Shown here piece after piece: positions 1,517 to 18,384 of a DNA stretch of 64,000 bases (within the stretch, counting starts at the first letter, position 1; the number at the start of each line of letters is the position of its first letter). Source of the stretch: Vulcanimicrobiota bacterium (GTDB lineage Bacteria; Vulcanimicrobiota; Xenobia; Xenobiales; JADMJV01); the NCBI GenBank assembly GCA_050250895.1, contig JBFWNU010000001.1, positions 2,278,210 through 2,342,209 of the forward strand, read 5' to 3'. The position numbers and the translations under genes are program-made. The notes under the pieces are model-generated. The model did no database searches and was not told the DNA's origin. It was given only the letters and a program-made list of their open reading frames with translations.

Positions 1517-2617
1517 ATGGATTTTTTTAGGAAGCTATTCTCTAAGGCGCCTGAGTTGGGCGCTATCGACATTGGCAGCAACATGATCAAGGTTGCCATC
1601 GTCAACGAGAAGAAGGGCGCCCCACCCGAGCTTTATCGCTATGCCCAATGCGCCACGCCGCCAATGACCATCAAAGATGGCTCCATTGTCGACGCTCAGC
1701 TGCTGGGTGAAACGATAGCAGGCCTGCTCGCTTCGAGCGACATCCAGGTCGGCAAGTTGGTGTCGGCTGTGGCCGGTCAGCAGGTCGTGATTCGTCCGAT
1801 CCAGATGACCAAGATGAAGCAGTCCGAGGTCAACCAGGCTATCAAGTTCGAGGCCGAGCGCTATCTACCATACTCGGTGACTGATGCCTCGGTGTCGGGA
1901 ATGATTATCAACGAGCATGTCGACGAGCGCAGTATGGAAGTGCTGTTGATCGCCGTACCCAACGAGATCGTCGCCAACGCGCGCGAGGTGGTCAAGATGG
2001 CCGAAGTCGAGCCCGGCCCCATCGATCTCGAACCCCTGGCCCTGTTCCGTTCACTCAAGCATTGTGTGAGCGACGAGCAGATGGCGGGGACGCTGGCCTT
2101 GATTAATCTCGGCGCGAGCTTCAGTAGTATCAATATTTTCCGCCAACGGGTCCTGCGCCATAACCGGACGATTTCCATCGCGGGCAACTCGTTCACCAAG
2201 GCGATCGGACAATCTCTCAATCTTTCTTTCGAAGAAGCCGAAAAGATCAAGAAAGAGAAGGGTGTCATCCGGGTCGAGAACAACGCCGACCCGGTGCCGC
2301 CCACGACGATGAGAATTTTCAATCTCATCGTTCCCGTCTTGACCGAGCTGGTGACCGAAATCCAGCGCTCGTTCGACTACTACCGTTCGCGCTACAAGGA
2401 CGGAGCGGTCGACCTGGTGATTCTCTCGGGCGGCACCGCAAAATTCAAGAATATTGACCAGTTTCTGGCCAACGAACTCGGCGTCAAAGCCGAGATCGCC
2501 AATCCCTTTCGAGGGATTAATGCCCAGAAAGTGCCTGGTCTCTCTCAGGCCGACCTGGCTGATATCGCGCCCAATGCTATGGTTGCTCTGGGCTTGGCCC
2601 TGAGGGAGGCTCAGTGA
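1517..2617 (+). CDS. pilM: Type IV pilus assembly ATPase-fold protein PilM
   Basis: Actin-like fold motifs (IDIGSNMIKVA…, LSGGTAKF), 366 aa; GGGAGGGGG RBS 8 nt upstream of the ATG. Confidence 0.85.
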   Translation: MDFFRKLFSKAPELGAIDIGSNMIKVAIVNEKKGAPPELYRYAQCATPPMTIKDGSIVDAQLLGETIAGLLASSDIQVGKLVSAVAGQQVVIRPIQMTKMKQSEVNQAIKFEAERYLPYSVTDASVSGMIINEHVDERSMEVLLIAVPNEIVANAREVVKMAEVEPGPIDLEPLALFRSLKHCVSDEQMAGTLALINLGASFSSINIFRQRVLRHNRTISIAGNSFTKAIGQSLNLSFEEAEKIKKEKGVIRVENNADPVPPTTMRIFNLIVPVLTELVTEIQRSFDYYRSRYKDGAVDLVILSGGTAKFKNIDQFLANELGVKAEIANPFRGINAQKVPGLSQADLADIAPNAMVALGLALREAQ

Positions 2618-2936: not shown

Positions 2937-5006
2937 ATGCCATCGGTGACGCATAGAGGCATAAAGTTTCTGCTAGCGTGTATGCTTGCCGTTGGTTTCG
3001 CCTGTTCCACCGTCTCCGCTGCAAGCGCCGCCACTGTTACGGACGTCAAAGTCAGTAACGGTGCCAACGGCACGCTGCAAGTGGAAGTCGGTGCCAACGG
3101 CGCGGTGAAACACCGTGCCAAAACACTGTCGAAACCGCAGAAACTAATCGTAGTTGATGTGTTCCCTGCCGTGCTCGGCCAGAACGTGAGAACGTCCTTT
3201 GACGTGAACCAGGGTCTGGTGGAGAAGGTTCGGGTAAAACAATACAACGACAACACTGTAAGAGTGTATGTCGACGTTATCACCCTTCCTGAGTTCAAGG
3301 TGATGACCGCAGACGGTTCGAAAGGCCTGACCTTGGCCGTGTCGACCGCTCAGATGGCCGAGGGGAAAGCGACGAGCGCCCCGTCCACGAGCGAAGAAGA
3401 CACCGAGGTTGCTACTCAACCGACTGCGCCGGCAACCCAACCCCGGGTTGCTCAGTCTTCCCCTCGTCCTCGGACGGCTCCCCGACAGGTGTCGAACAAC
3501 GGCATCAACATGTCGGGAGCCGGTGACGCTCCGGTGTCGGCTTTGCGGCCGCGTCGGGCACCCAAAAAGGCCCCCGCTCCGAAGCAGCGTCTGGTGACGC
3601 TCGACTTCGTGAACGCTGACCTGGTCTACGTGATCAAGGTGTTGGCCAAAGAGATGAACCGTAACGTTTTCGTCGGCCCTACGGTCGACGGCTCCGTGAC
3701 GGTGACTCTCAAGAACGTCCCTGTCGAGGGCGCTCTGGCTCTGATCCTGAAAATGCAGGAGAATGAGTACGACTATAAGGTGTTGAAAAACACCATTGTA
3801 GTGGCCGCCCCCGAGAAGCTGTCGGAGATTCCCGACGACATCCTCGATGACTCCAAGGTCAAAGAGCCGCTTCTGCCGGAATTTACGATTCGTCAGGAGA
3901 TCCTGCTCGAGAAAGCTCCCGCTGCTAAGGTGATGGAGTTCCTCGAAGGGCAGTATGATCGGGTGAAGTTCACTGCTCACCCGACCATGAACGGGTTCTA
4001 TGTCGTGGGATCCCGGGAAGACGTTCTCCAGATCAAGCGCGAAGTGCCGAATCTGGACCGTGTTCCCGAGCCTCCGCCGCCACCGCTCCGTGAGTTCCTC
4101 ACGGTGAAGTATGGCGACATCAACGAGGTTCGTACCCTTCTTTCGACGCTGGTTCCCGACGTTCAGTACAATGTGGACACTCGTCTGAACCTGATCATCG
4201 CCGAGGGTTCCCCGGGCGCTATCGACCAGGTGAAAGAGCTGTTGGCTGAAATCGACCGTCCCCTCGACCAGGTCATGATCGACGTCAAAGTCGTCGACAT
4301 CACCGAGAACGGCCGTAAACAGCTGGGCGTTTCCTGGGGTGCTTCCGGCGCTCCGGGTACCGTCATCACTACCTTCACTGAAGGTGTTACCGGCCAGCGC
4401 CTCGAGCGCAACAACAACGCAGGTGGTGCGATTTTGAACCCGGGTGCTCTCACCCAGATTCAGAGTTTCGCCGCCATCGGGATCTCCGAGTTCGCTCGCA
4501 GTCCGCTCATCCTGGAAGCCTCGATTCAGTTCCTGGTGACCCAGGGCGAAGCCAAGGTTCTTGCCTCGCCTCGCGTGGCAACCCGTTCGGGCCGCGACGC
4601 TCTCATCCACATCGGCGACAAGTTCCCGATCGTCTACTTCGACCCCCGCGCTGGACAGTTCCAGGTGCAGTATGTTGACATCGGCATCAAGCTGGATGTC
4701 AAACCCGAGATCAAGGCCGACGGCTTCGTGCTGGTCGACCTGCGTCCCGAGGTCAGCACTCTGGTCGAGTTGGTCAACAACCAGTATCCTCGCACCGCGG
4801 TTCGTACCGTCAACACGTCAATGCGTGTTAAAGATGGTGATACTATCATCATCGGCGGTCTGATCCAGGAGCAGGATCTACAGTCGGTCACCAAAGTGCC
4901 GCTGTTGGGCGACCTGCCGATTATCGGCACGTTGTTCCGTCAGACTTCGGTCACCAAGACCCGCAACGAGGTCGTGATGATGCTCACTCCTAGCGTGATG
5001 CGCTAG
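2937..5006 (+). CDS. pilQ: Type IV pilus secretin PilQ with N-terminal AMIN domain and a Pro/Ala-rich linker
   Basis: Signal peptide, AMIN-like N-domain, and secretin C-domain motifs (LVTQGEAKVLASPRVATRSG…, VPLLGDLPIIGTLF…MMLTP); 689 aa. Confidence 0.9.
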   Translation: MPSVTHRGIKFLLACMLAVGFACSTVSAASAATVTDVKVSNGANGTLQVEVGANGAVKHRAKTLSKPQKLIVVDVFPAVLGQNVRTSFDVNQGLVEKVRVKQYNDNTVRVYVDVITLPEFKVMTADGSKGLTLAVSTAQMAEGKATSAPSTSEEDTEVATQPTAPATQPRVAQSSPRPRTAPRQVSNNGINMSGAGDAPVSALRPRRAPKKAPAPKQRLVTLDFVNADLVYVIKVLAKEMNRNVFVGPTVDGSVTVTLKNVPVEGALALILKMQENEYDYKVLKNTIVVAAPEKLSEIPDDILDDSKVKEPLLPEFTIRQEILLEKAPAAKVMEFLEGQYDRVKFTAHPTMNGFYVVGSREDVLQIKREVPNLDRVPEPPPPPLREFLTVKYGDINEVRTLLSTLVPDVQYNVDTRLNLIIAEGSPGAIDQVKELLAEIDRPLDQVMIDVKVVDITENGRKQLGVSWGASGAPGTVITTFTEGVTGQRLERNNNAGGAILNPGALTQIQSFAAIGISEFARSPLILEASIQFLVTQGEAKVLASPRVATRSGRDALIHIGDKFPIVYFDPRAGQFQVQYVDIGIKLDVKPEIKADGFVLVDLRPEVSTLVELVNNQYPRTAVRTVNTSMRVKDGDTIIIGGLIQEQDLQSVTKVPLLGDLPIIGTLFRQTSVTKTRNEVVMMLTPSVMR

Positions 5007-5026
5007 TAGAACATCGTCGCCAACGA

Positions 5027-5066
5027 AGAGCGCCGTCCCCAGGGGCGGCGCTCTTTCTTTGTTTCC
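5027..5066 (+). terminator. Probable rho-independent terminator after pilQ
   Basis: GC-rich imperfect hairpin gagcgccgtcccc-a-ggggcggcgctc followed by TTTCTTTGTTT. Confidence 0.45.
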
Positions 5067-5404
5067 GGGATGGCCTTCTCGGGGCAGGCTAGAATGCTCT
5101 TCATTATACCATCCGCTGGTTTGGCTTGCAGGATCGCTTGACTTGGGAACCGAACCAAGTTCAACGACTTGAAGTTTAGTTCACGCGCGCCTGGAAAGCG
5201 ACCGTGAGTAGAACGGGCCACGACAATAGAGATAGGTCCGTGTGGCTGCTCTAGAATCAGCGTCGCGAACTGAAGAGCTACACAGTACGGGTTGGTACAA
5301 CTTGATCTCATTCGAAGGTAGGGCCTTTCACGGTCCAGCTATCCTAGTATTGTCCGACAACATTGTTCAGGGCTCCGTTATGTCCCATGGAAGGAGGTCC
5401 CACA

Positions 5405-8400
5405 ATGGCTGACGCTGTTGCTCTTCTTTCCGATGCCCAACGTTCGTACACCACCGGTGACTGGGACCAGGCGATCGACGCCTACAAGAAGGCCCTCGAG
5501 GCCGACCCGAACAATCGCGAAGCTTGCGAAAAGATGGCCAAGGTCTACGCCATTCGCGGGATGTACAAGTCGGTCATCTCCACCTATTATCAGCTGATTG
5601 ACATTCTCGAGTCGAGTGACGACCTCAATGGTGCTCTCGAGGTGGCCGATTGGGTGATGGCGCTCAAGCCCGACTCGGCTGAGGCCAGGGCCAAGCGCAT
5701 CCTGGTCTTCCAGAAGAAGGGCGACACCGAAGAGGTGGTTCGCCAGTCGCGCGGCCTGGCCAGGTTGTACATCGAACTCGGCGAGGGCGACAAATCGATC
5801 CAGCTGTTGCAGCAAGCCCAGAAGGCGGACCCTGATAATCTCGACATTGGGCTCGAACTGGCCGAGATGTATGTCAGCCATGGCCATATTCAGGACGGTG
5901 CAAATCAGTACCGCAAGGTAGCCAACGCTTTCCAGGACCAGGGCAACCTCGAGCGGGCCGCCGAGGCCTATAAGCGCATGAAGGTGATCGTGTCCGACGA
6001 CCCCGGCGTGCTGCTCACTCTGGGGCGGCTGTATGTCGACCTGCGCCGCTACAACGAGGCTGAGCAAGAGTTCCGCTCCATCTTAAGACACAATCTCAGC
6101 CACGAAGAGGCTTTGCTTGAACTGGGCCGCGTCTGTCAGCTAAAGGGTCAGTTCCGCGACGCCATTCTTGCCTTCAACAAGATCCTTTCCATCAACCCCG
6201 ACGTGGTCATGGCCAAAGAGAAGTTGGGTGAGCTCTACAAAGCTCAGGGCCTGGTGCCGGAGGCCATCAAGAATTTCCTGGCCGCGGCTCAGGCTTATCT
6301 CGAGATCGACGAGAAGGACAAAGCCATCCATCTCTATCAGATCGTTCTTGGTCTCGACACCAGCAACGCCACGGCTTGTCGCGAGTTGACCAACCTGGGT
6401 GCGCCACTCATCGGTATCGAACCCGAGCCAGAGCCCGAACCCGAGCCGGTGCCCGAACCGGTGGCGCAAGCCGAGCCAGAACCAGAGTTCGAGCCCGAAC
6501 CAGAGTTCGAGCCGGAGCCCGAGCCTGAAGTGGCGGTTATGCAACCTCCGCCGGCGCCCGCTCCGGCTGCTGGCGGCGGTCGTGCTAACGGTTTCGCCTC
6601 TTCCGAGCCAGCTATGGCTGGACCGCCGCGCGCACCCCGGGCAGGCTTGACTCCTCCTGATTCTCCCCGACCGGGGCTGACCACTCCCGAGTCGCCCCGA
6701 CCGGGCCTGACTGCTCCGGACGCGGCCGATTCGCCGAAGCGCGGACTGGTTCGTCGAGGCGGCGATGCTAGTGGCGGCTTGCGCCCAGGTCTGCGTGGCC
6801 CGGGCGGCCCCGGAGGTCCTGGTGGCAAACCTACGCTTGGACTGCGCGACCACTCCGGCCCTTTGCGCAAGGGACTCGAGCGCGAGGGTGGCGTGGGCGA
6901 CAAGCCTATGCTGATGCGCAAGCCCATGCTGGAGCGACGCTCGCCGGCTGACGAGAAGCCGACCTTGAGTCGGAACGAAGCCCCCCGGCCAACACCCGAG
7001 CCGATCAGCGCCCGCGAACCCGAACCTACCGAGTTCGAGCCGTTGGAGCCGCTGGAGCCGCTGGAGCCTTTGGAAGCGGTCGAACCGCCGGCCATCTCAC
7101 CCCCACCCGCCCTGCCTCCGCTCGAGCCCGAGCCTGAGCCCGAGCCAGAATTCGACGAGCCGATGGCCGAGGTCGAGCACGCTGAAGAAGCCGACTTCGA
7201 TGGCGAAGAAGACGAGAGTGGCGAAGAACGCGGTGGTCTCGGACAGAGCTTGCTCGGTTCACGCCAGGAGCGGCCATCTCTGCGAGGTGGCGGACTGCTA
7301 GGCGCCGGGCCGCGGCTGGGCATCAAGCCAGGTCCCTCCCTGGGAAAACCCAAGTTGGGTGGTCTCGGCGGTTTGCGCTCGACCAAACCCGAAGGGCGCC
7401 CTGGCGGTCTTTTGCGTCCCGGTCAGCCGACCGGTCGGATCGAGGATGACGAGCAAGGTGCCGAAGAATCGGCCTCTTTCGACAACCCCGAAGAAGTAAA
7501 CGGCCTCTTCTCGCAAATGCGTGACAGGGCGAAGCCTGCCGAGGCTCCTACGCCCAGTTCCGAATTGATGTCTCCCGAGGGAGGGCTTTTCGACGGCGAG
7601 AGATCTGAATCGGACAGTCTCTTTGGCGAGCCCGCTCCCGCCGGCGGACTGTTTGATTCACCGGCCCCCTCTCCGGCCCAGGATCTATTTGGCGAGCCAG
7701 AACCCGCTGGCGGGGGTCTCTTCGATTCACCCGCGCAGACCGACAAAGACGACCTGTTCGGCTCGTCCCCGGCTTCTTCTGGCGGCTTGTTCGACTCGCC
7801 GGCTGAGCCCGCAGGCGGGCTTTTCGATACCAGCCCAGCCTCTCGAGCCGCTGACAGCTTGTTCGGCGAGCCTCCGGCCCCCTCGGCCCCATCCAACGAC
7901 CTGTTCAGTGAGCCGGCGCCCGCGGCGACTGCCTCGAATGAAGACCTGTTCTCGTCGCCTCCGGCCTCCGAGCCGGCCGGCCTTTTCGAATCACCCGAAC
8001 CGGCTCCGGCCGATTCGCTCTTTAGCTCGGCTCCCCGCAATGAAGAGCCGCCGAGTCTTTTCGACTCTCGCCCGGTCGACGAGTCCTCGTTGGAACCCCC
8101 CTCGGCCGAGCCGGTAGCTCAAGACGGTTCCGATCCGTTCGGTTCCAGCCACGACCTCTTCGATCAACCGCCGCCAGCCGACGCCGACGGACTGTTCGGT
8201 GGCCAGGCCACCCAATCAGACCTCTTTGACCAGCCAGCGCCGGTTGCCGACGACCTTTTCTCGGCTCCCGCAGAGGCACCGGCGGCGGATCTGTTCTCGT
8301 CCGCCCCGGCCCCAGCCAGCGACCTGTTCAGCCAGCCGGCGGCTCCGGTCGAAGAGCCTGCGGCGCCCTCAAATGACCCGTTCCATCAGTCGGCCGCTCC

Positions 8401-11400
8401 AGCCAGCGACCTGTTCAGCCAGCCCGCAGCCCCGGCCGGGGACCTGTTCAGCCAGCCCGCGGCTCCGGCCGGCGACCTGTTCAGCCAGCCCGCCGCTCCG
8501 GCCGCCGACCTGTTCAGCCAGCCCGCGGCTCCGGCCGGCGACCTGTTCAGCCAGCCCGCCGCTCCCTCGAGCGACCCTTTCTCTCAGCCCGCCGCCAGCG
8601 ATGACCCGTTCAGTCCGGCACCTGCGTCGGCTGAGTCCGCCGAAGCGCCGGCCAGCGACCTGTTCAGTCAGAGCCCGGCCCCGGCTGGAGATCTGTTCAG
8701 TCAGACCCCTGCGCCGGCGGCCGGTGACCTCTTCGGGCAGTCTTCGGCTCCGGCGGCCGACCTGTTCAGCCAGACCCCGGCAGGTGACCTGTTCAGCCAG
8801 GCACCGGCCAACGAGCCTTTCAGCCCGGCCCCCGAGCCCGACCCGGCTCCGGCCGCAGACCTGTTCAGCCAGGCCCCGGCCGGCGACCTGTTTTCGGCTG
8901 CTCCCGTCGAGGCGCCCTCCTCGGGTCTGTTCGAACAGCCCGCCGGCGGTGACCTGTTCTCGGCTGCGCCTGCGCCGGCCCCAGTCGAGCAACCGGTGGC
9001 CAGCGAGCCCGCCCCCGCCGGGGGATTGTTTGACGAGCCTGCCCCCGAGGCCCGGTCCGAGCTGTTCAGCCCTGCTCCCGAGACCGCTCCGGCCAGCGAG
9101 GCGGCGGAAGAACTCTTCTCGCCGACCACGCCCGAAGCCCCGGCCGAAGCCGCTGCGGGCGGTTTGTTCGACGAGCCCGCCCCGGCTGCGGGTGGCTTGT
9201 TCGACCCTGCTCCCGCCGCTGGACTGTTCAGTGAGGCGACCGGTTCGTCCCAAGATAAGAAGGCGGCCGTGTCGGCGGCCTTCGAGCGCTTCCGCAAAGA
9301 CAAGCCCGGCGGCGGCTCGCAGGAGCCGGTGCCCGGAGAGGAAGAGCCCAGGCTCTCGAGCGAGATCGTGCTGCCCCCGCGTCCGCAGGACTCGCCAGAC
9401 TTCCTGCAGGCTCTTGAAGCGACCCTGCCGCGCCCGGCCTCGGCCGAGCCCGAGCCCGAGGCTGCTCCACCCAGCGTAGAGTTGGATCTCGAGCCCAGCC
9501 ATGAGTCAGCCGAGGTTCCGGTTGCTCCTCCTGCTCACGAGAGTTTCGAGATCGAAGAGCCGGTGGCCACGGCCGAGCCTGAGGTGGTGGTGCCCGAGGT
9601 GGTGCCCGAACCCGTGCCCGAGCCCGAACCCGAGCCCGAAGTGCTGGGACGACCCACCGTCTCGATGTCGATCGAGGAAGAGTCGCCAGACGAACATGTC
9701 TCCCAGGCCGACGACGTTCGCAACTCCCTGGGTGACTCTGATGTGGCGACCTCGATTAGCGTCTATCGTAAGGCTGTGGAAGAATCTCCCGACAACTTGG
9801 TGTTGCGCACCCGGCTCGCCGACATCCACATGCAGTATGGGCTGCTTGAGGACGCCGTCGTCCAGTATCGCCAGATCATCAAGCGAAACCCCGCTTCCAT
9901 CAGCCTTCGCCACCGCCTGATTCAAGCTCACCTTTGGAACGAGAGTCACGATCAGGCGGCTGCGGCCTTGATGGAGTTGGCCGAACTGCACTCCGAGCAG
10001 GGTAACCACCAGGACGCTCTCGACGCGCTCCAGACGGTGCTCAGTCTCGACCCTCATCACTTCGAGGCTCGCAAGCGTCTGGTCGACCGGTTCACGGCTC
10101 TCGATGAGGCCAAACTGGCCGCCCACCACTTGCGTCAATTGGCCGAGGCGGCCCTCACGAAGGGCAACGTGGAAGAAGCCATCAGCGCCTTCAAGCAGTT
10201 GATGGAGATCTCCGACGATCCCAGTTTCCAGGACCGGCTGGCCCAGGTCTACGAGAGCCAGGGAGACAACCAGCAGGCGTTGCTCCACTATCGTCAACTG
10301 GTGGCGCGCTACCAGAGCGAAGAGAAGTGGGAAGAGGCAGCTGCCGCCACCGAGCGTATCGCCGAGCTCGACCCCGAAGCGGTCGAGACCCGCACCGGTC
10401 TCATCGACCTCTACCAAAAGCTGGGTCTGACCGACAAGGTGATCGAGCAACAATTCGAGCTGGCTCGCTATCACCAGGTGCGCGACGAGTTACCTGAGGC
10501 GATTGCGCTCTACGAGCGAGTCGTGGCGGCGCGACCGCAGAAATACGATGCCCGCCGCCTACTGGTCGACGCCTATCTCGATTCCGGCAAGGTGCCGGCG
10601 GCGCTGCAGCAGTCCGAGGCGCTCACGGAGCACTATCTGACCACCAAAGACCACACCACCGCCATCGAACTTTACAGGCGATTGGTGGAGGCCGACTCCG
10701 AGAACGTCGAGCTACGCGAACGCCTGATCAAGTTCTACAACATGGCCGAAGACTCGACCAACGCCATGGAGCAGCTGCTGATCCTGGCTGGTCTGCACCG
10801 CGCCAACGAGCGCTACTCGCAGGCGGTGGATTGTTATCGCAGGGCGCTCGAACTTGACGAGTCGCGAGTTGACTTGCATTACGAACTGGCTCAGATCCAT
10901 GTCGACCACCTCGACGACCTCGAGTCGGCGATGCGGCAGTTCCGCCGGGTCTACGAGCTGGCCCCCACCAACCTCGAGGCCATGGAACGCTACATTCGCA
11001 TGCTGCTCGACGCCGGCAGCGCGGGCGAGGCGGGCGAGGTGCTCAATAAACTGGTCGAATCCAGTGACTCGGGCGACCAGGTTCGCGAAGCGCTTCTCTC
11101 CGAACTCAAAGCCAAGATCGAGCGCGACCCCGCCGACATGTCGGCCCGTTTCAACTATGGTGAGCTGTGCTTCCACCTGGGCGAACTTGACCTGGGTATC
11201 GAGCAGTTCCAGCAGACGCGCCGTGACCCGGCTTTCGAACTCAAGTCGTACAACATGTTAGGTCTATGCTTTGCCGAGAAGACCGGCTTCAATATGCTGG
11301 ACCTGGCCATCAAGCAGTTCCGCAAAGGTCTCGAGACCCGCGGTCACTCCGACCAGGATTATCTCGAACTCAAATACAACCTGGCGATGCTTCAGTATCG

Positions 11401-11533
11401 CAACGGAAGGCTCCAGGAGTCGCTTCAGGAGCTGAAGGATTGCTACGCCGTAGACATCGCCTTTAAGGACGTGCGCGAATGGGTGCGTCGAATCGAGGCG
11501 GAGATTGCGGGAGGGCCCCGCTTCCCGCGATAA
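5405..11533 (+). CDS. Giant TPR-repeat protein (2042 aa) with a ~1000-aa disordered PEPE / ΦLF-repeat core
   Basis: GGAAGGAGG RBS before ATG 5405 (the track ORF starts at 5363). N-terminal TPR of ~330 aa. Central low-complexity region (~nt 6410-9700) holds (EP)n tracts and about 45 DLFS/GLFD repeats. C-terminal TPR solenoid of ~600 aa. The C-terminal module is shared with the next gene. Confidence 0.85.
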   Translation: MADAVALLSDAQRSYTTGDWDQAIDAYKKALEADPNNREACEKMAKVYAIRGMYKSVISTYYQLIDILESSDDLNGALEVADWVMALKPDSAEARAKRILVFQKKGDTEEVVRQSRGLARLYIELGEGDKSIQLLQQAQKADPDNLDIGLELAEMYVSHGHIQDGANQYRKVANAFQDQGNLERAAEAYKRMKVIVSDDPGVLLTLGRLYVDLRRYNEAEQEFRSILRHNLSHEEALLELGRVCQLKGQFRDAILAFNKILSINPDVVMAKEKLGELYKAQGLVPEAIKNFLAAAQAYLEIDEKDKAIHLYQIVLGLDTSNATACRELTNLGAPLIGIEPEPEPEPEPVPEPVAQAEPEPEFEPEPEFEPEPEPEVAVMQPPPAPAPAAGGGRANGFASSEPAMAGPPRAPRAGLTPPDSPRPGLTTPESPRPGLTAPDAADSPKRGLVRRGGDASGGLRPGLRGPGGPGGPGGKPTLGLRDHSGPLRKGLEREGGVGDKPMLMRKPMLERRSPADEKPTLSRNEAPRPTPEPISAREPEPTEFEPLEPLEPLEPLEAVEPPAISPPPALPPLEPEPEPEPEFDEPMAEVEHAEEADFDGEEDESGEERGGLGQSLLGSRQERPSLRGGGLLGAGPRLGIKPGPSLGKPKLGGLGGLRSTKPEGRPGGLLRPGQPTGRIEDDEQGAEESASFDNPEEVNGLFSQMRDRAKPAEAPTPSSELMSPEGGLFDGERSESDSLFGEPAPAGGLFDSPAPSPAQDLFGEPEPAGGGLFDSPAQTDKDDLFGSSPASSGGLFDSPAEPAGGLFDTSPASRAADSLFGEPPAPSAPSNDLFSEPAPAATASNEDLFSSPPASEPAGLFESPEPAPADSLFSSAPRNEEPPSLFDSRPVDESSLEPPSAEPVAQDGSDPFGSSHDLFDQPPPADADGLFGGQATQSDLFDQPAPVADDLFSAPAEAPAADLFSSAPAPASDLFSQPAAPVEEPAAPSNDPFHQSAAPASDLFSQPAAPAGDLFSQPAAPAGDLFSQPAAPAADLFSQPAAPAGDLFSQPAAPSSDPFSQPAASDDPFSPAPASAESAEAPASDLFSQSPAPAGDLFSQTPAPAAGDLFGQSSAPAADLFSQTPAGDLFSQAPANEPFSPAPEPDPAPAADLFSQAPAGDLFSAAPVEAPSSGLFEQPAGGDLFSAAPAPAPVEQPVASEPAPAGGLFDEPAPEARSELFSPAPETAPASEAAEELFSPTTPEAPAEAAAGGLFDEPAPAAGGLFDPAPAAGLFSEATGSSQDKKAAVSAAFERFRKDKPGGGSQEPVPGEEEPRLSSEIVLPPRPQDSPDFLQALEATLPRPASAEPEPEAAPPSVELDLEPSHESAEVPVAPPAHESFEIEEPVATAEPEVVVPEVVPEPVPEPEPEPEVLGRPTVSMSIEEESPDEHVSQADDVRNSLGDSDVATSISVYRKAVEESPDNLVLRTRLADIHMQYGLLEDAVVQYRQIIKRNPASISLRHRLIQAHLWNESHDQAAAALMELAELHSEQGNHQDALDALQTVLSLDPHHFEARKRLVDRFTALDEAKLAAHHLRQLAEAALTKGNVEEAISAFKQLMEISDDPSFQDRLAQVYESQGDNQQALLHYRQLVARYQSEEKWEEAAAATERIAELDPEAVETRTGLIDLYQKLGLTDKVIEQQFELARYHQVRDELPEAIALYERVVAARPQKYDARRLLVDAYLDSGKVPAALQQSEALTEHYLTTKDHTTAIELYRRLVEADSENVELRERLIKFYNMAEDSTNAMEQLLILAGLHRANERYSQAVDCYRRALELDESRVDLHYELAQIHVDHLDDLESAMRQFRRVYELAPTNLEAMERYIRMLLDAGSAGEAGEVLNKLVESSDSGDQVREALLSELKAKIERDPADMSARFNYGELCFHLGELDLGIEQFQQTRRDPAFELKSYNMLGLCFAEKTGFNMLDLAIKQFRKGLETRGHSDQDYLELKYNLAMLQYRNGRLQESLQELKDCYAVDIAFKDVREWVRRIEAEIAGGPRFPR

Positions 11534-11624: not shown

Positions 11625-14600
11625 ATGCCTGACCAGAAGGAAGTCATCCAGCAGTGGATTCAGCACGCCAACACCCTGGCTACCCAGGGTCGGTGGGATG
11701 AAGCCCTCGCAGCTTATAACAAGGTCGTCGAGGTCGACCAGCATAATCTCGATGTGCGTCAGCACATCATTAGCATCTCCTTGAAGAAGGGTAACTACTC
11801 CGAGGTGATCCATCAGCACATGGATTGCGCCGAGATTTACCATCAGCAGGGGGATCGTGACGCTGCCATCGAGCGTTACGAAGAGATTTTGCGCCTTCAA
11901 GAAACGGTCGAAGGCCATGGCTCTAGCTTCGATGGCGGCGGAGACGCCGCCCAGGTGCACCAACTCGTAAGTCAGGTCAAGCCCGAGATCTATCACCAGA
12001 TTGGTGACTATCATCTTGAGCGCGAGAACGTTGACCTCGCTCTGCAATACCTGCGCAAAAGCCAGGAGCTTCAACCCGGCCGTTGGGACACACACATGGC
12101 CCTCGGTCGGGCCTACATGAAGAAGAGCATGGACAAAGAGGCTATCGGCGAGTTCCAGGAGGTGCTGCGACTGGCTCCCGATGAGTCTGCTCTGGCCTAC
12201 GAGAACCTCGGCGAGGTGTTCGTGCGCCAGGGCAGACCGCCTCACAGCACGGTGGTCTGGTTCCAGCACGCGGCCGAGTATTATCTCAAGAAGCAGAAGC
12301 TGGCCGACGCCACCCGCGCCTACGAGCGCATTCTCGAGTTTGATCCTCAGAACAAAGAGATTCTCTACAATCTGGGCGAGCTTTATGCTCAACAGGGTCT
12401 CAAGGAGCAGGCGGTGCGGACTTACCGCACCCTGGCCGAACTCTATGAGAAGGAGGGGCTGCTGGATAAAGTGATCCAGCTCTACGAGACCGTGGTTTCG
12501 TGGGACCCCGACAGTCAGTGGGCTACCGACAAGCTGATCTCTATCTACGAAGGCGTGTTGGGACGAAACTCTAACAACATCTCGGTTCGCGTTCGGCTGA
12601 TCGAACATCTCGCCGCCCAGGGCCGTCGCGGCGAACTGGGTCCCCACTACCTGGCCCTGGCCCAGGGTCATGTCGAGCGCGGCATGCTCGACGAGGCGGT
12701 CAAGGCGTCACGTCAACTACTCGAACTCGAGCCGCAAAACATTCAAGCCCGTGAGATCCTCGGAGACATCTATCTCAAGAAGGATATGCACTCCGAGGCC
12801 CTCGACATCTTCCAGCAGATCGTCAAGATCTACCGGGCCCAGGGCAACGAGCAGGCCGCCCTGCAGTTCCAACAACGATTGGTCGAGGTCTTTCCCCAAG
12901 CTCCCGAGCTACTCTATCAAGTAGCTCTCAGTCTCCGCGACAAGGGCGACCACGAGGGTGCCCTGCGCGAACTCGACCGCATCATCGCCCAGCGCCCCGA
13001 CGATATCAAGGCGTTGGCCTACAAAGCCGAGCTGCTGGGGCGGCTCAATCGTCTCGACGAGTCGATTCAGACCTATGCTCGGGTGCTCCAGATGGATCCC
13101 CAGCGCACCGACGTGCGCAAGCTGATTATCGAGCTTTTGATCAAGACCAATCGTCTCGAAGAGTCGTCGCGCCAGATCGGCGTCCTCTCTCCTGATGACC
13201 CCGACATCCCGGCCTTGCGCAGCCGCATCATCCTACTTTACATCGAGACGCGCCGCCTCGAGCAAGCCGAGCAAGAGCTTGCCTATCTCCCCGAAGAGAA
13301 CGAGCGGCGGCTGGTGTTCCGCAAGGAGCTGGTCAAGCTCTATCTCGACGCCGGCAATCTTGACAAGGCTTTCGAGGGTTTGCCTCAGATCCCGCGCTCC
13401 GACCGTGAGCGCAACAGTCTGGTGACCCGACTGCTCGAGATTCCGCTGGCCAAGGGCGACCTCGAGACAGCCGCCAAGACCATTCATCGGCTACCCGAAG
13501 ACGACCCGCTGCGACTGTCGTTTCAGCGCCGTCTGGTAGCCTCGTATGTCGAGGCCGGCCGGCTCGACGAGGCAGCGGACGAATGCCTGCGCCTGCCGGC
13601 CGACGACGAGGCTCGCTCGGGCTTCGTCAGTCGCCTGATCGGCGGTTTTCTCACCCAGGGCGAACTCGAGAAGGCTTCGCGCGAGATCTATCGCCTCTCC
13701 GAGGGTGACCCGCTGCGCAACTCGTTCATGGGCCAGCTCATCGAGGCTTATCTTTCGGCTGGCGAACTCGAACGGGCCGCCCAAGAGGTGGGCCGGCTTT
13801 CGCGCGAAGACGAGATCCGCCCCCGCTATCATCGACGCATCATTCAGGCCTATCTCAACGCCAGCAAGTTCGAAGAAGCCGAGCGCGACATCCTGGCTCT
13901 CGACGACTCCGACCCCGAGAAACGTTCCTTCCTGAGGCTGCTGATTCAGAAGTACCTGACGCTGGGCCAGCTCGATCGAGTGCGCGAAGTGGTGAATCGC
14001 ATGCCCGACGACATGGACGAGAAGAAGCAGTATCTCGACGGGTTGGTCCACAACTATCTCGACACCGGCGACCTGGCCGGTGCCCGTCATCAAATCTATC
14101 AGATGGCCGAATCCGAGGCCTCTCAGGGCAACCACAAGGAGGCCGAGCGTCTCTATCGCGAGATTCTCGCCTATCAGCCCGCCGACGCCGAGATTCGCTT
14201 GCGGTTGTCCCAAGAGATCGCGGTCCAGGGTCAGACCGAACGCGCCCGCGAGGGTATGCTGGTGCTGGCCGGTCGCTTCCACCGCGAGAACAACGTGACT
14301 TCGGCGGCCGACGTTTATAGCCGCATGCTCGAGGTCGATCCTAACGACCTCAACGCCCGTTACAAACTGGGCACTCTGTGGGCTGAGCAAGGTCAGACGG
14401 CCCAGGCCCTCGAGCAGTTTGGCGCCCTGGCCAAGGTCTATCTCGAACAGAACCTGCCCGAGGTGGCCCAGAAGGTTCTCAACAAGATACTCGAGCTCGA
14501 TCCGAAGGACATGGAGCATCGACGCCAGGCGATAAGGCTCTTGATCCGCAACTTGCGTTTCGAAGAGGCGACCGAGCACTATCGCGCCTTGATGGGCATC

Positions 14601-16001
14601 CATCTTGAACGGGGCGAAGTCGACGAGGCGCTCGAATGCGTCAAGGAGATCGTCAATCTCCAACCGCTCAACCTCGAGCTGCGCCAGTCGCTGGGCGCGA
14701 TGTTCCTGCGCGCTGGCTTCTTGGAGCAGGGTCAAAACCTGCTCGAAGAGTTGGCCCGCGACGCCGAAGACAAAAGGGACAACGAACGTCTGCTACGGGT
14801 GCTGTGGACGCTGGTTCGCTCCTTCGAAGAGAACGAGCAGTGGGAGATCTCGCTCGAATATCGCGAGCGCATCGCCGACCTGTTGCGCTCGCTTGATCAA
14901 TGGCAAGAGGCCCACGAGGAGTATCTCAAGATCATCGAGGGCTACCTCATCCACGAGCAGAAAGAGCCCAGCGAGCCCATTTTCGTCAAGGTTATCGATG
15001 GCTTCTTCCGCAATCGCGTGGTTCCCGAGGGGCTCAGCAAGCTCGACGGCCTGGAAGAGTCGCTATCTGATGCGGGGCATCACAAGATGGCGCTGCTGGT
15101 TCGCGAGCGGACGGCCTCGATCATGGAGCGACTCGACGAGTGGGATCGGGCTATCGAGATGTACGACGGCATCTCCGAGCGCTATCTCGAGTTGGGCGAA
15201 GTCGAGCTGGGTCTCGAGTTCCGCCGCCGCGCCGCCGATCAGGCTCTAAATCACGAGCGCATCGAGCAGGGTGTCGAGCATCTCTTCGTGCTGGCAGGCG
15301 CCACCGTGGAGCACAGGGGACTCGAAGAGGCTCGGCCGGTCCTCGATGAACTGCGCAAGACGGCGCAAGATGATGTCGGCTATCTCGAGCGCCTGGGTGA
15401 TGTCCTGTTCAAACACTCTCTGTTCGAAGAGGCTCGTCCCATCTACGCCGAGGTGCTCGAACGAGAGCCCGGACGCCCCGAGGCACTCTCGCGGGTAGCC
15501 ATCATCTATGCCCGCGAAGGGCGCCTGGAAGAGGCCGCCGATGTGGCCAAGCAGATCTTCTCGAAAGGTCTCGTGTCCAGGATCATCAAAGAATATAAAG
15601 AAGCTACTGGTTTCACCGAGGGCGACGCTGGTTCGCACGTGCGTCTCGGGCAGTTCTATCGACAGATGGGCTTCCTGGAGGAGGCGATTCGTGAGTTCCT
15701 GGTCGCAAGCCAGGATCCCAGCCGACTGTTGGGCGCTTACAATCATTTGGCCCAATGCTTCCGGCAGCAGGGTTATTTGGAACTCGCGGTCAAGCAGTTC
15801 CAGAAGGCGCTCGACCAGCCCGGTTATCGGGACGAAGAGTTGCTTGAGTTGCGCTTCAATCTAGCCTGCGCGCTAGAAGATATGGGGCGACATAAAGCAG
15901 CCCTGGCGGCGTTCCAGGAGTGCTACGTCATCGACATCCGCTATCGAGAAGTGGCACAAAGGATCGAGGCCCTCATGGCGAATATGCACGCAGAGGTATA
16001 G
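11625..16001 (+). CDS. Giant TPR-repeat protein (1458 aa), paralogous C-terminus to the preceding gene
   Basis: Continuous TPR-like helical repeats throughout. Its last ~100 aa align with the last ~100 aa of the 5405-11533 product (LG.CF..G…LA.KQF.K.L…ELLEL.NLA…CY..DI). Confidence 0.85.
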   Translation: MPDQKEVIQQWIQHANTLATQGRWDEALAAYNKVVEVDQHNLDVRQHIISISLKKGNYSEVIHQHMDCAEIYHQQGDRDAAIERYEEILRLQETVEGHGSSFDGGGDAAQVHQLVSQVKPEIYHQIGDYHLERENVDLALQYLRKSQELQPGRWDTHMALGRAYMKKSMDKEAIGEFQEVLRLAPDESALAYENLGEVFVRQGRPPHSTVVWFQHAAEYYLKKQKLADATRAYERILEFDPQNKEILYNLGELYAQQGLKEQAVRTYRTLAELYEKEGLLDKVIQLYETVVSWDPDSQWATDKLISIYEGVLGRNSNNISVRVRLIEHLAAQGRRGELGPHYLALAQGHVERGMLDEAVKASRQLLELEPQNIQAREILGDIYLKKDMHSEALDIFQQIVKIYRAQGNEQAALQFQQRLVEVFPQAPELLYQVALSLRDKGDHEGALRELDRIIAQRPDDIKALAYKAELLGRLNRLDESIQTYARVLQMDPQRTDVRKLIIELLIKTNRLEESSRQIGVLSPDDPDIPALRSRIILLYIETRRLEQAEQELAYLPEENERRLVFRKELVKLYLDAGNLDKAFEGLPQIPRSDRERNSLVTRLLEIPLAKGDLETAAKTIHRLPEDDPLRLSFQRRLVASYVEAGRLDEAADECLRLPADDEARSGFVSRLIGGFLTQGELEKASREIYRLSEGDPLRNSFMGQLIEAYLSAGELERAAQEVGRLSREDEIRPRYHRRIIQAYLNASKFEEAERDILALDDSDPEKRSFLRLLIQKYLTLGQLDRVREVVNRMPDDMDEKKQYLDGLVHNYLDTGDLAGARHQIYQMAESEASQGNHKEAERLYREILAYQPADAEIRLRLSQEIAVQGQTERAREGMLVLAGRFHRENNVTSAADVYSRMLEVDPNDLNARYKLGTLWAEQGQTAQALEQFGALAKVYLEQNLPEVAQKVLNKILELDPKDMEHRRQAIRLLIRNLRFEEATEHYRALMGIHLERGEVDEALECVKEIVNLQPLNLELRQSLGAMFLRAGFLEQGQNLLEELARDAEDKRDNERLLRVLWTLVRSFEENEQWEISLEYRERIADLLRSLDQWQEAHEEYLKIIEGYLIHEQKEPSEPIFVKVIDGFFRNRVVPEGLSKLDGLEESLSDAGHHKMALLVRERTASIMERLDEWDRAIEMYDGISERYLELGEVELGLEFRRRAADQALNHERIEQGVEHLFVLAGATVEHRGLEEARPVLDELRKTAQDDVGYLERLGDVLFKHSLFEEARPIYAEVLEREPGRPEALSRVAIIYAREGRLEEAADVAKQIFSKGLVSRIIKEYKEATGFTEGDAGSHVRLGQFYRQMGFLEEAIREFLVASQDPSRLLGAYNHLAQCFRQQGYLELAVKQFQKALDQPGYRDEELLELRFNLACALEDMGRHKAALAAFQECYVIDIRYREVAQRIEALMANMHAEV

Positions 16002-16015
16002 CGGGAAGGGGTTAC

Positions 16016-17461
16016 GTGAAAGTTTTGTTCACAAGCGAAGCGACGCGGGGGCTTAGACGAATCGGGCTGGCCAGTCTGATAGCCCTCACGTCCATCCAGG
16101 CTGCTTGGGCCGACGAGGGCGGCTTTATGGATGTCCTCAAGCAGCAAGAGAACAACCTTTTCCTTGGCATGATAGGCCTCGGTGTGACCCTGGTGGTCTT
16201 GATCGTGGCCGAAGTCGTTCTCTCCAAGCGCGAGAGCAGTTCTTCACTCGATATCGACCGATTGGCGGCTGCGGCTCAGCGCAAGCAGCAGAGCGCGATG
16301 GCCGCCGCCGCGCAGGCTAACCCCGGGGGAGCCTATGCTCCGCCCCCTCCGCCTCCTCCGCCGCGTCCCGGGGCCCCGCCCCCACCACCTCCGCCGCCGA
16401 GCCCTTCCGCGGCCCCATTACCGCCCCCGCCGCCGCCTCCGTCGTTTGACGAAGACGTCAATCCATTTCAAAAATTGTCCCGCCTGGCCGCCGATGACGA
16501 GATGGCTCCGGTGGGCGCGCCGCCGCCGCCCCCGCCGCCACCTCCTCCGCCGCCTATGAGTTTTCCGTCGGCCGGTCCGGCTTCCGAGGAAATGGCTCCT
16601 CCGCCGCCGCCTCCGCCCCCGCCCCAGTTTGCGCCTCAGGGCAGCGGTGAGATGCCCTCCATGGGCATGCCCACCTCGCCACTCGGAGGAGGAGGATTTA
16701 ACGCACCGCCGCCTCCACCACCTCCGCAGGGCATGCCCACGGCACCCCTCGGAGGCGGTTTCAACGCACCCCTGGGCAGTCCGACCTCTCCCCTGGGAGG
16801 TTTCAATTCGCCGATGGGCACGCCGACGACGGCGCTGGGCAACCTCGGCTCTCCCACCACCTCCCTGGGCAACCTGGGCAACATGGGGACTCCGACCACC
16901 GCCCTGGGAGGCATTCCCGGGATGGGCTCGTCGGGTCCGCCCTCGCTCGAGTCGACCAGTCCTCTGGCCGGGCCCGGCGGAGAAGCCGGGGGTGGTGGCT
17001 GGGCCGACCTGCTCCAGCGCGTCCGGGCCGGAGAACCCGAAGCAGCATCTTTTTCGGGGGGCGGGGCTACACCGCCGCCCTCAACCGAAGACGAACCTCC
17101 TCGGCAGAGTCCGTTCCTGCCCACCGGTGGCTTTAATACCGGTGGTGGTGGCGGTGGGGGGGGCTCGTCTGAAGCTTGGGAAGCCCTTTTGAAGAAGACG
17201 ACCGGGGATGACCCCGGGCGTCCCAAGAAGCCCGGAGGAGGCGACGTCGGTCGCATCCAACTGGGCTCGGGCGAAGGTTTCTCGCTACCCGGCATGGGCG
17301 GCGACAGCGGAGGCAGTCCCCTGGACTTCCTCGGTGGCGGTAGGTCCTCTGAGGAGGGTTTACCCGATGTCGTCAAAAAAGCAAGCCGGACGATCTCTTT
17401 GGACTTGAAGAAGGGAGGGGGACAAACCCCGCCTCCCCCGCTTCCCAAGACTGAGGGATAG
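16016..17461 (+). CDS. Proline-rich single-pass membrane protein with polyproline (FH1-like) tracts and WH2-like motifs
   Basis: GTG 16016 follows a GGGAAGGGG RBS (the track ORF at 15920 overlaps the upstream stop). Signal-peptide-like LASLIALTSIQAAWA|DE. TM helix LFLGMIGLGVTLVVLIVAEVVL. Four runs of 8-12 Pro. Gly/Thr/Pro-rich tail containing ADLLQRVRAG and EALLKKT. Confidence 0.7.
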   Translation: MKVLFTSEATRGLRRIGLASLIALTSIQAAWADEGGFMDVLKQQENNLFLGMIGLGVTLVVLIVAEVVLSKRESSSSLDIDRLAAAAQRKQQSAMAAAAQANPGGAYAPPPPPPPPRPGAPPPPPPPPSPSAAPLPPPPPPPSFDEDVNPFQKLSRLAADDEMAPVGAPPPPPPPPPPPPMSFPSAGPASEEMAPPPPPPPPPQFAPQGSGEMPSMGMPTSPLGGGGFNAPPPPPPPQGMPTAPLGGGFNAPLGSPTSPLGGFNSPMGTPTTALGNLGSPTTSLGNLGNMGTPTTALGGIPGMGSSGPPSLESTSPLAGPGGEAGGGGWADLLQRVRAGEPEAASFSGGGATPPPSTEDEPPRQSPFLPTGGFNTGGGGGGGGSSEAWEALLKKTTGDDPGRPKKPGGGDVGRIQLGSGEGFSLPGMGGDSGGSPLDFLGGGRSSEEGLPDVVKKASRTISLDLKKGGGQTPPPPLPKTEG

Positions 17462-17469
17462 ACTAGCTC

Positions 17470-18384
17470 ATGCCAGCAGTATTAGGAGGCGAGTTGCTTC
17501 TCCCTAAAGGGAATGCCTTAATCGAGGACATCACGCTCCCGGTCCATGATATCGAGACGATGATCACGAATCTCGAGAGTGATCATTTCACTGGCTACGT
17601 TCGTCTGGATATCAGCGGAACCGAGGGGCTGGTATTCTTCTCATCGGGAGAAGTCTTGCGGGCCATCGAGCTTCCCAGCGGAGCGGACCCCATCGTCCGG
17701 TTGCTGCCTCGCGTCATTAATCTGGCCCGGCAACGGATGGAAGTGCCCGCTTCGTCCTACGTAATGAGCCCCCAGATCATCTCGGTGCTGTCGAGCGTTT
17801 TTGCGTTTAAGCCCAAATACAAAGACTACCAAGTCAAGCGTAAAGAGATGAAGAAGGTGCTCAACAGTCTCGAGCAAGATGAGTGCTCGGGCATCCTCAA
17901 GATGGTGGGTCCCGACGGTCGAGTGTGTCTGTTGATGGACCGAGGCAATCTGGTCACCGACCGGTTCGCCACCAACTACGGAGAGGTGGTCTGTGGAGCC
18001 GAATCGGTCAGCAGCGTGCTCGACTATGTGCACAAAAACGGCTCGACCATCCAGGTTTATGCCGAGAAGGCCAACGAGATCGACAACCTGCGCCGGCGGG
18101 CTGAAGACGAACTAGAAAAGATTCGGCAGCTGATCGTCAAAGAGAAGTCGGGCATGTTCCGAGCCAGTGACGTGGTCAAAGTGGCTGAAGACATCATTCG
18201 CGACTGGGGCATCGATATCAAGCAGACCTTCATGGTCGAGATCGAAACCGGCACCGGCGAACTCTTCAACTTCAAGTGCCAGGCCGGACGCAAACTGGGC
18301 GGCTACGCCGAAGTGCATTCAAATATGCTCAAGACCATGTCAGTCAACGAAGGAGACCTCGTCAACGTTCGACCGATCGGTTGA
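17470..18384 (+). CDS. Hypothetical protein, possibly tandem DUF4388/PATAN-like domains
   Basis: 304 aa, starts 9 nt after the previous stop. Two repeated segments (HFTGYVRLDISGTEGLVFFSSGEVL / ECSGILKMVGPDGRVCLLMDRGNLV) recall DUF4388 from memory. The domain call is unverified. Confidence 0.6.
   Translation: MPAVLGGELLLPKGNALIEDITLPVHDIETMITNLESDHFTGYVRLDISGTEGLVFFSSGEVLRAIELPSGADPIVRLLPRVINLARQRMEVPASSYVMSPQIISVLSSVFAFKPKYKDYQVKRKEMKKVLNSLEQDECSGILKMVGPDGRVCLLMDRGNLVTDRFATNYGEVVCGAESVSSVLDYVHKNGSTIQVYAEKANEIDNLRRRAEDELEKIRQLIVKEKSGMFRASDVVKVAEDIIRDWGIDIKQTFMVEIETGTGELFNFKCQAGRKLGGYAEVHSNMLKTMSVNEGDLVNVRPIG

Follow-up and report, generated by a model that had tools for sequence, protein, structure and literature searches.

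The subject of this report is a gene for a giant protein of 2042 amino acids (aa), found at 5405..11533 in a 64,000-nucleotide (nt) window from the genome of an uncultured Vulcanimicrobiota bacterium (GenBank assembly GCA_050250895.1, contig JBFWNU010000001.1, positions 2,278,210 to 2,342,209 of the forward strand). The window is that whole stretch, and coordinates refer to it unless another locus is named. The protein consists of two solenoids of tetratricopeptide repeats (TPR) joined by a long, acidic, disordered linker, within which lies an array of 46 short motifs centred on phenylalanine. The family of giant bacterial scaffold proteins to which it belongs is real and had not been described before, and its aromatic motif differs from clade to clade. 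The best explanation for the family is a scaffold peculiar to Eremiobacterota, in the lineages Xenobia and Bruticola. That it is a cytoplasmic scaffold linked to the machinery of the pilus and of cell polarity, with the array providing multivalent weak binding, is the reading I favour, though tentatively and against several rivals.

Anatomy of the protein and its aromatic array

The open reading frame (ORF) runs over 5363..11533 on the forward strand, where all parts of the protein described in this section also lie. The preferred start, consistent with the translation and with orthologs, is the ATG at 5405, which has GGAGG 7 nt before it and gives the same length as was obtained in an earlier reading of the window from its letters and ORFs (the sequence-only reading). 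The N-terminal TPR solenoid (5405..6415, aa 1-337) has 19 helices and ends in the conserved terminus RELTNLGAPLIG; it is identified by Pfam TPR models, AlphaFold and an alignment of relatives (A3). The C-terminal solenoid (9671..11530), with 34 helices, is identified by AlphaFold, by the invariant columns of a second alignment (A1) and by Foldseek, and it closes with a conserved end module (…IEQFQQTRRD…YNMLGLCF…QFRKGLE…YLELKYNLA…CYAVDIAFKDV…). AlphaFold, working from shallow alignments, places the two sets of helices at aa 1-330 and aa ~1437-2042, both with a predicted local distance difference test (pLDDT) score above 90. The ~1090-aa linker between them scores 30-53 in the parts that the models cover (aa 345-700 and ~1276-1420).

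The sequence-only reading had proposed this architecture, with a TPR solenoid on each side of an acidic disordered array and pilQ as the neighbouring gene, and the TPR matches, the pLDDT values and the domains of PilQ all agree with it. As to the flanks, their assignment to TPR holds and nothing more specific came with it: Foldseek with the C-terminal model, and a sequence search of solved structures, returned only generic long TPR superhelices (OGT, Ctr9, Ski3, IFT-A). The protein has no transmembrane (TM) segment, its maximum KD19 hydropathy being 1.0, and no signal peptide; the N-terminus enters the TPR directly, as do those of the orthologs examined. The protein is predicted to be cytoplasmic.

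The array occupies 7505..9229 and is distinguished by counts, spacing, codon usage and a Pfam match taken up below. Between aa 701 and aa 1280 there are 46 Phe, each preceded by Leu (41) or Pro (5), and none lies outside [LP]F. The consensus is (A/P)(D/G/S)-[L/P]-F-(S/D/G), set in Pro/Ala/Ser spacers. When the same residues are shuffled, [LP]F occurs 11.5 times on average and never more than 23 times. The distance from Phe to Phe averages 12.7 aa with a coefficient of variation of 0.33, as compared to 0.93 after shuffling, a regularity that not one of 10,000 shuffles reached. Phe is followed 25 times by Ser, 11 times by Asp, 7 times by Gly, twice by Glu and once by His, and the array carries a net charge of -83 over 580 aa.

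The most recently formed part, at 8393..8565, consists of 33-bp tandem units encoding PAAPAGDLFSQ (5.2 copies with 90% matches by Tandem Repeats Finder). The sequence-only reading had placed these 11-aa units, with the same period, near 8400-8600, and its estimate of about 45 short motifs centred on Leu-Phe (LF) is close to the present count. Two of its descriptions need to be changed. The repeat core, put at about 1000 aa, shrinks to an array proper of ~580 aa within the longer linker, and the label FG (Phe-Gly) does not suit a motif that is mostly D-L-F-S/D and in which Gly follows Phe in just 7 of 46 copies.

The codons of the array indicate what has been preserved. Leu is encoded in five ways (CTG 22, CTC 8, CTT 5, TTG 5, CTA 1), both Phe codons are used, and the Ser that follows comes from both the AGY and the TCN families. 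Since the Leu and Ser codons are synonymous yet diverse, the DNA drifting while the peptide is kept, the motif is selected at the level of the peptide. The closest relative (locus L002) is 86-90% identical in the TPR domains, and its linker is only ~50% identical over aligned columns, with 262 gap columns; despite this it retains 34 LF motifs. Hypervariable junk lacking a conserved motif, the outcome that the sequence-only reading had set against itself, is therefore not what is seen within the clade, where LF is kept and its codons are diverse.

The linker as a whole is rich in Pro (19%), Ala (15%) and Glu (12%), the top residues being P, A, E, S and G, and its net charge is -137. Outside the array it contains the (Glu-Pro)n tracts reported by the sequence-only reading, of which Tandem Repeats Finder locates three: tract 1 at 6418..6529 (period 6/18, confirmed in translation), a mixed (Leu-Glu-Pro)n and (Glu-Pro)n tract 2 at 7031..7146, and a (Val/Glu-Pro)n tract 3 at 9586..9640. 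Between the first two tracts lies a basic cluster rich in Gly and Leu (6629..6976), made of [KR]xGL and [KR]PxL repeats (RPGL, KRGL, KPTL, DKPML). Motif counts find such a cluster in all 14 full-length orthologs, 30-180 residues past the N-terminal TPR, and in the short-form relatives too. A second basic cluster (…PRLGIKPGPSLGKPKLGGLGGLRSTKPEGRPGGLLRPGQP) at 7232..7429 stands out as a conserved island when the linkers of the window and L002 are aligned. The islands kept between these two linkers are the two basic clusters ([KR]xGL, KPxL), the segment IVLPPRPQDSxDFLQALEATLPR and the junction VLGRPTVSMSIEE. A conserved short motif, IVLPPRPQDSPDFLQALEATLPRP (9365..9436), is nearly identical in L002; it is modelled as a short helix (residues 58-65 of the model fragment), and the relatives P0006 and L009 carry a related motif, xEFMxxLELT(L/M)P(R/K).

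The family and its clade-specific motifs

A search with the C-terminal TPR as query gave 14 strong hits, followed by a steep fall in score to generic TPR proteins. Every taxonomically named protein amongst the 14 comes from a metagenome-assembled genome (MAG) of Eremiobacterota. A scan of one genome per species yielded 33 loci, mostly labelled Vulcanimicrobiota/Eremiobacterota, Candidatus Xenobia or Candidatus Bruticola, with some MAG records otherwise named. Both TPR domains are present at 14 of the loci, 13 of which are single intact ORFs of 1700-2300 aa, and full-length relatives were found only in MAGs of the Eremiobacterota type. The linkers of all 14 are acidic, with net charges from -95 to -232. 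Among 1.84 billion representative proteins searched with a profile, at least 46 have both TPR domains, with linkers of 139-1044 aa between them; across all relatives the range is 139 to ~1330 aa.

The family is defined, on the basis of alignments A1 and A3, the 14 genomic orthologs and the 46 representatives with both domains, by the RELTNLGAPL that closes the N-terminal TPR, by the basic cluster of [KR]xGL/KPxL motifs, by the acidity of the linker and by the end IEQFQQTRRD…CY.VDI.(Y/F)(R/K)DV of the C-terminal TPR. The window protein has all four. Distant homologs of ~1060 aa in Acidobacteria, named FimV by the Joint Genome Institute (JGI), share only the C-terminal TPR module; they have ordinary acidic linkers and housekeeping neighbours.

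Most members with a long linker carry an acidic aromatic array, and its motif, or sticker, differs amongst the orthologs. In the LF clade (the window, L002, L009, L011-L014, L026, L027 and L029) it is D/G/S-LF in 26-41 copies. The DPF clade (L001, L006-L008, L010 and L028) has 84-92 or more copies of Asp-Pro-Phe in Ala-rich spacers. The W/FG clade (L003 and L015, with L004 and L005 partial and showing the F array only) has QQSWDQPAP, with up to 27 Trp, and then a genuine FG repeat, PPAQDFGASSFGSA, so that QSW in 27 copies occurs together with QDFGASSFG. A clade of gut Bruticola has Tyr arrays (GGYDYQ, GGQYGAYPEAE) with 46-55 Tyr, and the sticker of L031 is EEYAEEP. In a neighbour-joining tree of the C-terminal TPR each type of sticker maps to its own clade, except that LF is found on two branches, which makes it the probable ancestral sticker of the Phe clades. 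The conservation of LF in orthologs, on which the sequence-only reading had laid weight, thus holds in part: LF is kept within the clade and related lineages have dense aromatic arrays of their own, but the sticker is a different one there, and relatives with no array exist.

Some members fill the linker in other ways. Long runs of AEAKAAEEARLA and EAARREAEEQARR repeats replace the aromatic array in P0161 and P0172 (these resemble charged single alpha-helix rods), and the long linker of P0151 consists of Pro/Val/Glu repeats. Several array-poor members nonetheless repeat an acidic-Φ-[FY]-small motif 3-10 times (EADLFAGP, DDTLYGSD, DDELYSGP, TSLFDWE), a number that exceeds the shuffled expectation in six of them (P0151, P0161, P0172, P0184, P0189 and P0196). 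To judge from these comparisons, the window array is best understood as a short motif that recurs in the family and has here been multiplied to an extreme number of copies; it is neither junk nor an indispensable core.

Two peculiarities of individual loci may be recorded here. The linker of L021, from gut Bruticola, contains among its Tyr arrays five hydrophobic Gly/Ala/Val segments (SGVGLAKVAVGAVAIGAVAAASSxVADNF) that do not occur in the window and may be membrane-active or amyloid-like elements. In L001, a gap of N's within the DPF array (~7700-7850 of that locus) shifts the frame, and because of it the public gene call is split, and ~700 aa of the array appear in it as out-of-frame PTRLQRR… repeats.

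The genes around it

The gene set of the window, which includes pilD, pilM and pilQ (upstream), dprA and mutS, provides a bacterial context. On the forward strand upstream of the TPR-linker gene lie pilM (1517..2617; Pfam PilM_2, E = 1.8e-46) and the secretin gene pilQ (2937..5006), whose product matches the Pfam models Secretin, Secretin_N and AMIN and scores 217 bits against TIGR02515, under its cutoff of 284. A strong terminator-like hairpin with a 14-bp stem and a T-run follows pilQ at 5025..5056 on the same strand. The gap between pilM and pilQ (2617-2937) is 320 nt long and contains no pilN, pilO or pilP; at the same position L003 (311-2471 of that locus) has genes for a PilN-like protein (N-terminal KVDLLP), a PilO-like protein and a PilP-like lipoprotein, making its operon a full pilM-pilN-pilO-pilP-pilQ.

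Downstream, again on the forward strand, comes a second giant protein (11625..16001), an all-TPR paralog of 1458 aa that ends in the same ~100-aa module (…YNHLAQCF…QFQKALD…LELRFNLA…CYVIDIRYREV…). No terminator was found between the two genes, which are probably co-transcribed. The end module of the paralog also closes the ~1060-aa Acidobacterial proteins labelled FimV. Next is a membrane-anchored protein (15920..17461, forward strand, start codon uncertain), in whose translation there are at least five poly-Pro tracts and PLGGGFNAP and TALGNLG repeats, and which has no Pfam or NCBIfam match; it is kept beside the TPR paralog at seven loci (L003, L004, L007, L010, L011, L012 and L028). It is followed by a 305-aa protein (17467..18384, forward strand) with a weak match to PATAN/DUF4388 (20.4 bits in Pfam, cutoff 25) that is kept at more than 20 loci, and further on by a protein (20709..22139, forward strand) with TPR, an acidic EP linker and a C-terminal domain resembling roadblock/LC7 (Robl_LC7, a weak 15.9 bits). 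At the short-form locus L038 the syntenic roadblock gene is separate and matches Pfam Robl_LC7 cleanly. The acidic linker of the 20709..22139 protein contains an (EP)6 tract, and its orthologs in the DPF clade carry Trp-acidic motifs there (LWDD, LWED).

The order is maintained at nearly all loci: the TPR paralog comes first and is followed in most by the poly-Pro membrane protein, the PATAN-like protein of ~300 aa and the roadblock-like protein. Upstream, pilM(NOP)Q directly precedes the gene at 11 of 15 loci (the window and ten others) across the LF, W/FG and Tyr clades, and these clades share just 44-62% identity in the C-terminal TPR. Beyond the roadblock-like gene of the window there is a membrane protein with Wzy_C (O-antigen ligase-like) and TPR (22140-24500), and then dprA on the reverse strand (24497-25642). 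Pilin O-glycosylases are found among the Wzy_C enzymes, and the presence of DprA is a pointer to competence.

In Myxococcus and cyanobacteria, the classes of protein that regulate the polarity of pili are roadblock (MglB-type), PATAN and TPR proteins (PMC11580455; bioRxiv 10.1101/2021.06.11.447907), and the one cultured member of the Eremiobacterota moves phototactically by means of type IV pili (PMC9758169).

A tentative explanation and its rivals

The scaffold that I favour would work as follows. The two rigid TPR superhelices would be docking platforms, spaced by Glu-Pro rods and joined by the disordered linker, which would present two kinds of motif: the basic cluster ([KR]xGL/KPxL) and the acidic array of aromatic stickers. 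Each contact made by the array would be weak and their effects additive. The likeliest sites of contact would be the grooves of TPR domains, either those of the protein itself or those of the adjacent 1458-aa paralog, while partner proteins or the basic cluster might also play this part. A TPR groove is the most economical partner because TPRs bind acid-flanked aromatic residues (PMC6214655) and the motifs of this family are of the same kind (DDLF, QSWDQ, EEYAEE). As for the basic cluster, it might serve to neutralise the array or attach to yet another partner. The outcome would be a dynamic mesh of high avidity, or a condensate-like layer, that concentrates partners near the base of the pilus or at the cell pole; a network of this sort would be expected because 'receptor' and dozens of 'ligands' occupy one protein. 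The role as a hub, the identity of the binding partners and the formation of a mesh I infer from the architecture, the motifs and the neighbourhood.

A number of observations weigh against this explanation. The hairpin at 5025-5056 separates pilQ from the TPR-linker gene, a correction to the sequence-only reading, which had simply set the two side by side. The PATAN and roadblock assignments in the window fall under the Pfam cutoffs, and the upstream pil genes are absent from the DPF clade (including L001) and from the short-form locus L037. There are ~10-15 representatives (~1060-1250 aa) with no array at all, just the basic cluster and a short acidic linker of 139-360 aa, and because of such relatives the array is dispensable for the core function of the family. 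The AlphaFold single-chain models, in which the linker has the low pLDDT values already given, show no docking of linker motifs on either TPR domain, and a crude count of charges on alternate helices, in itself uninformative, gave no sign of a basic TPR face. The net charge of the array argues against simple self-cohesion. Finally, the linkers of the neighbouring TPR-roadblock protein contain no matching sticker arrays and do not co-vary in type of sticker.

One may suppose instead that the array recruits a client, with each D-[L/P]-F a specific motif for one folded protein that is not a TPR protein (PilM, PilB, the PATAN-like protein or the roadblock protein), so that the linker serves as 'flypaper' for clients, on the pattern of the Eps15 DPF array and the AP-2 appendage, and no mesh is formed. 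A motif so sharply defined and selected at the level of the peptide speaks for this idea. The 84-92 or more DPF units of one ortholog clade accord with it, as do the few acidic-Φ-[FY] copies that persist in some array-poor relatives and the conserved candidate clients encoded nearby. However, the sticker (LF, PF, W, FG or Y), the chemistry of the spacers and the charge all shift by clade, which fits generic aromatic contacts better than a single fixed pocket, and a valency of 46 to more than 100 lies far beyond the needs of stoichiometric recruitment. I regard recruitment of a single client as rather unlikely.

The linker might alternatively be an entropic spacer or bristle that sets the distance and the excluded volume between the TPR platforms, the aromatic motif being a by-product of tandem duplication. 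The range of linker lengths, from 139 to ~1330 aa, suits such a role, and so do the Glu-Pro rods, the substitution in some relatives of charged helical AEAKAAEEARLA or Pro/Val repeats, and the origin of the newest units in recent duplications of DNA. A by-product would hardly place every Phe within the motif at regular intervals or show, through synonymous codon diversity, selection on the peptide. At least four clades each keep dense aromatic arrays, moreover, and hydrophobic aromatic residues are not expected in a pure spacer. This explanation is unlikely.

It may also be that the protein is a general cytoplasmic TPR scaffold having nothing to do with pili, its adjacency to pilQ an accident of history. 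The hairpin after pilQ could be cited for this, together with the lack of upstream pil genes in the DPF clade and L001 and the housekeeping surroundings of short-form L037 and of the distant Acidobacterial homolog. Accident does not readily account for an adjacency to pilM(NOP)Q that has been kept in the LF, W/FG and Tyr clades at 44-62% identity of the C-terminal TPR, nor for the downstream roadblock and PATAN-like genes, of classes tied elsewhere to pilus polarity (PMC11580455), nor for the Wzy_C-TPR protein nearby. I consider a role apart from pili quite improbable.

The likeness to the FG-nucleoporins of eukaryotes, on which the sequence-only reading had dwelt, is measurable and limited. 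Pfam Nucleoporin_FG (PF13634) matches the whole protein at 48.3 bits and the linker by itself at 54.7 bits, in both cases passing the cutoff of 32.2; the match covers aa 775-848 counted from the ORF position 5363, or ~761-834 from the ATG at 5405. The array was also used as query against a database of 5.8 billion proteins, in a word-prefiltered search that scored 8,000 candidates and did not retrieve even the protein's own orthologs, and the only hits were eukaryotic Nup58-like GLFG nucleoporins. The same Pfam model makes no hit in the linkers of orthologs L028, L003, L021 and L009, one of which has genuine FG repeats. Since these linkers fail the model, the match in the window is sequence-specific low complexity. 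The protein has no anchor domain of the nuclear pore; the TPR solenoids are its sole folded parts and the gene context is bacterial. The Phe-Gly core that marks the class (FG, GLFG, FxFG) is found in only 7 of the 46 motifs. The resemblance in sequence thus stands for the window protein, and there it stops: it is a convergent likeness, functional at most, and not membership or homology.

A true FG-like selective phase, in which a sieve-like hydrogel gates macromolecules and the TPR solenoids are analogues of transport receptors, is very unlikely: evenly spaced aromatics, a Pfam score above the gathering cutoff, GLFG nucleoporins as the sole hits of the word-prefiltered search and an ortholog clade with genuine FG repeats speak for it, but FG is rare in the array, the strong negative charge opposes cohesion, the ortholog linkers fail the Pfam model, there is no known channel or compartment boundary to gate, and the protein is cytoplasmic with no membrane anchor.

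Significance

In the literature searched, I found no counterpart with a sharply defined aromatic-motif array of such valency between two TPR solenoids, and searches on bacterial FG-like repeats, on pilus scaffolds of Eremiobacterota and on condensates at pili produced no match. Disordered regions as such are familiar from other bacterial scaffolds (FimV/HubP, PodJ, PopZ and the partners of SgmX). The comparative pattern of stickers across this family is unusual. Its members form a series in which the folded domains and the neighbourhood are constant, the sticker varies (LF, DPF, W, FG, Y) and the number of copies runs from 0 to more than 100, and the series is well suited to testing how the identity and valency of stickers shape disordered scaffolds. 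For Eremiobacterota, the protein also supplies a first candidate for what organises the function of type IV pili. The Pfam result carries a more general caution, that Nucleoporin_FG can exceed its cutoff on bacterial sequence of low complexity.

A bolder proposal is that the family represents an independent aromatic-sticker phase, comparable to the FG phase of the nuclear pore or the YG phase of the peroxisome, with the TPR solenoids acting as 'receptors' and arrays of 46 to more than 100 copies forming a condensate that selects its clients, either on the cytoplasmic side of the type IV pilus machine or at the cell pole. I think this a long shot. If it were true, the swaps of sticker from clade to clade would amount to a natural experiment in the 'grammar' of condensates.

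Comparison with known systems

With the FG-nucleoporins of GLFG type (Nup58/Nup49-like) the window protein has in common a long disordered region in which Phe motifs recur by the dozen at even intervals, separated by Pro/Ala/Gly/Ser spacers. It differs in being bacterial and strongly acidic and in having orthologs that use DPF, W or Y as stickers. The acidity is unlike that of cohesive GLFG domains and argues against cohesion.

Eps15-type DPF arrays find their parallel in the ortholog clade with 84-92 or more Asp-Pro-Phe units; the window itself has 4. The flanks of the motif here are Ala-rich, and the AP-2 appendage, the partner of such arrays, is not known to exist in bacteria.

Amongst bacterial proteins, FimV/HubP share large acidic repeat regions, TPR-like elements and a link to PilQ and type IV pili, and JGI, as noted, uses the name FimV for the distant Acidobacterial homologs. 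FimV/HubP, however, have a periplasmic LysM and a single TM segment. I rejected this identity for the window protein: it has no TM segment, LysM appears neither among 25 of 31 families listed nor with the linker alone, and the FimV C-terminal domain TIGR03504 scores 25.3 bits against a cutoff of 30.65, in a match that sits in the N-terminal TPR.

SgmX of Myxococcus, a TPR protein that recruits the pilus motor (PMC11580455), resembles the window protein in being a cytoplasmic multi-TPR protein, in its pilus and polarity context and in its neighbours of the roadblock and PATAN classes; the PATAN proteins of cyanobacteria bind the pilus motor (bioRxiv 10.1101/2021.06.11.447907). SgmX, by contrast, has 14 TPRs, and an aromatic-array linker is not described for it in PMC11580455. 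With its model (NCBIfam NF052243) the scores, 49.1 and 47.7 bits, come nowhere near the cutoff of 1800, and GltE likewise falls far under its NCBIfam cutoff. Secretin pilotins of the PilF/PilW/Tgl type, which are small TPR lipoproteins, were excluded as well, both by score (in the test with TIGR02521 / NF033762, 56 bits against 154 for PilW and 35-41 against 225 for Tgl) and by the lack of a signal peptide in a protein of 2042 aa. Any periplasmic or secretin-pilotin role was set aside for the want of a signal peptide or TM segment and because the ortholog N-termini examined start in TPR.

PodJ, a condensate-forming polar scaffold, and PopZ (PMC8980812) are comparable in that they, too, are partly disordered scaffolds, with an implied part in organising the pole and in building pili; their features are a coiled coil, a TM segment and a periplasmic TPR, in contrast to the protein described here, and neither PodJ nor PopZ is known to have aromatic arrays.

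Two further parallels are eukaryotic. PEX5 and the YG phase of PEX13 combine a TPR domain with a disordered arm bearing multiple aromatic motifs and follow the same logic of aromatic stickers, but PEX5 has ~6-8 WxxxF/Y motifs, one TPR domain and a known role in cargo import, and there is no relationship in sequence. The TPR grooves of kinesin light chain bind Trp-acidic and Tyr-acidic motifs (PMC6214655), so that there too a TPR solenoid is met by acid-flanked short aromatic motifs in disorder, of the kind seen here as QSWDQ, EEYAEE and the DDLF type. In that system the motif and the TPR are on separate proteins and the motif is present in one or two copies, whereas the family described here has dozens to more than 100 copies on one chain together with two TPR domains.

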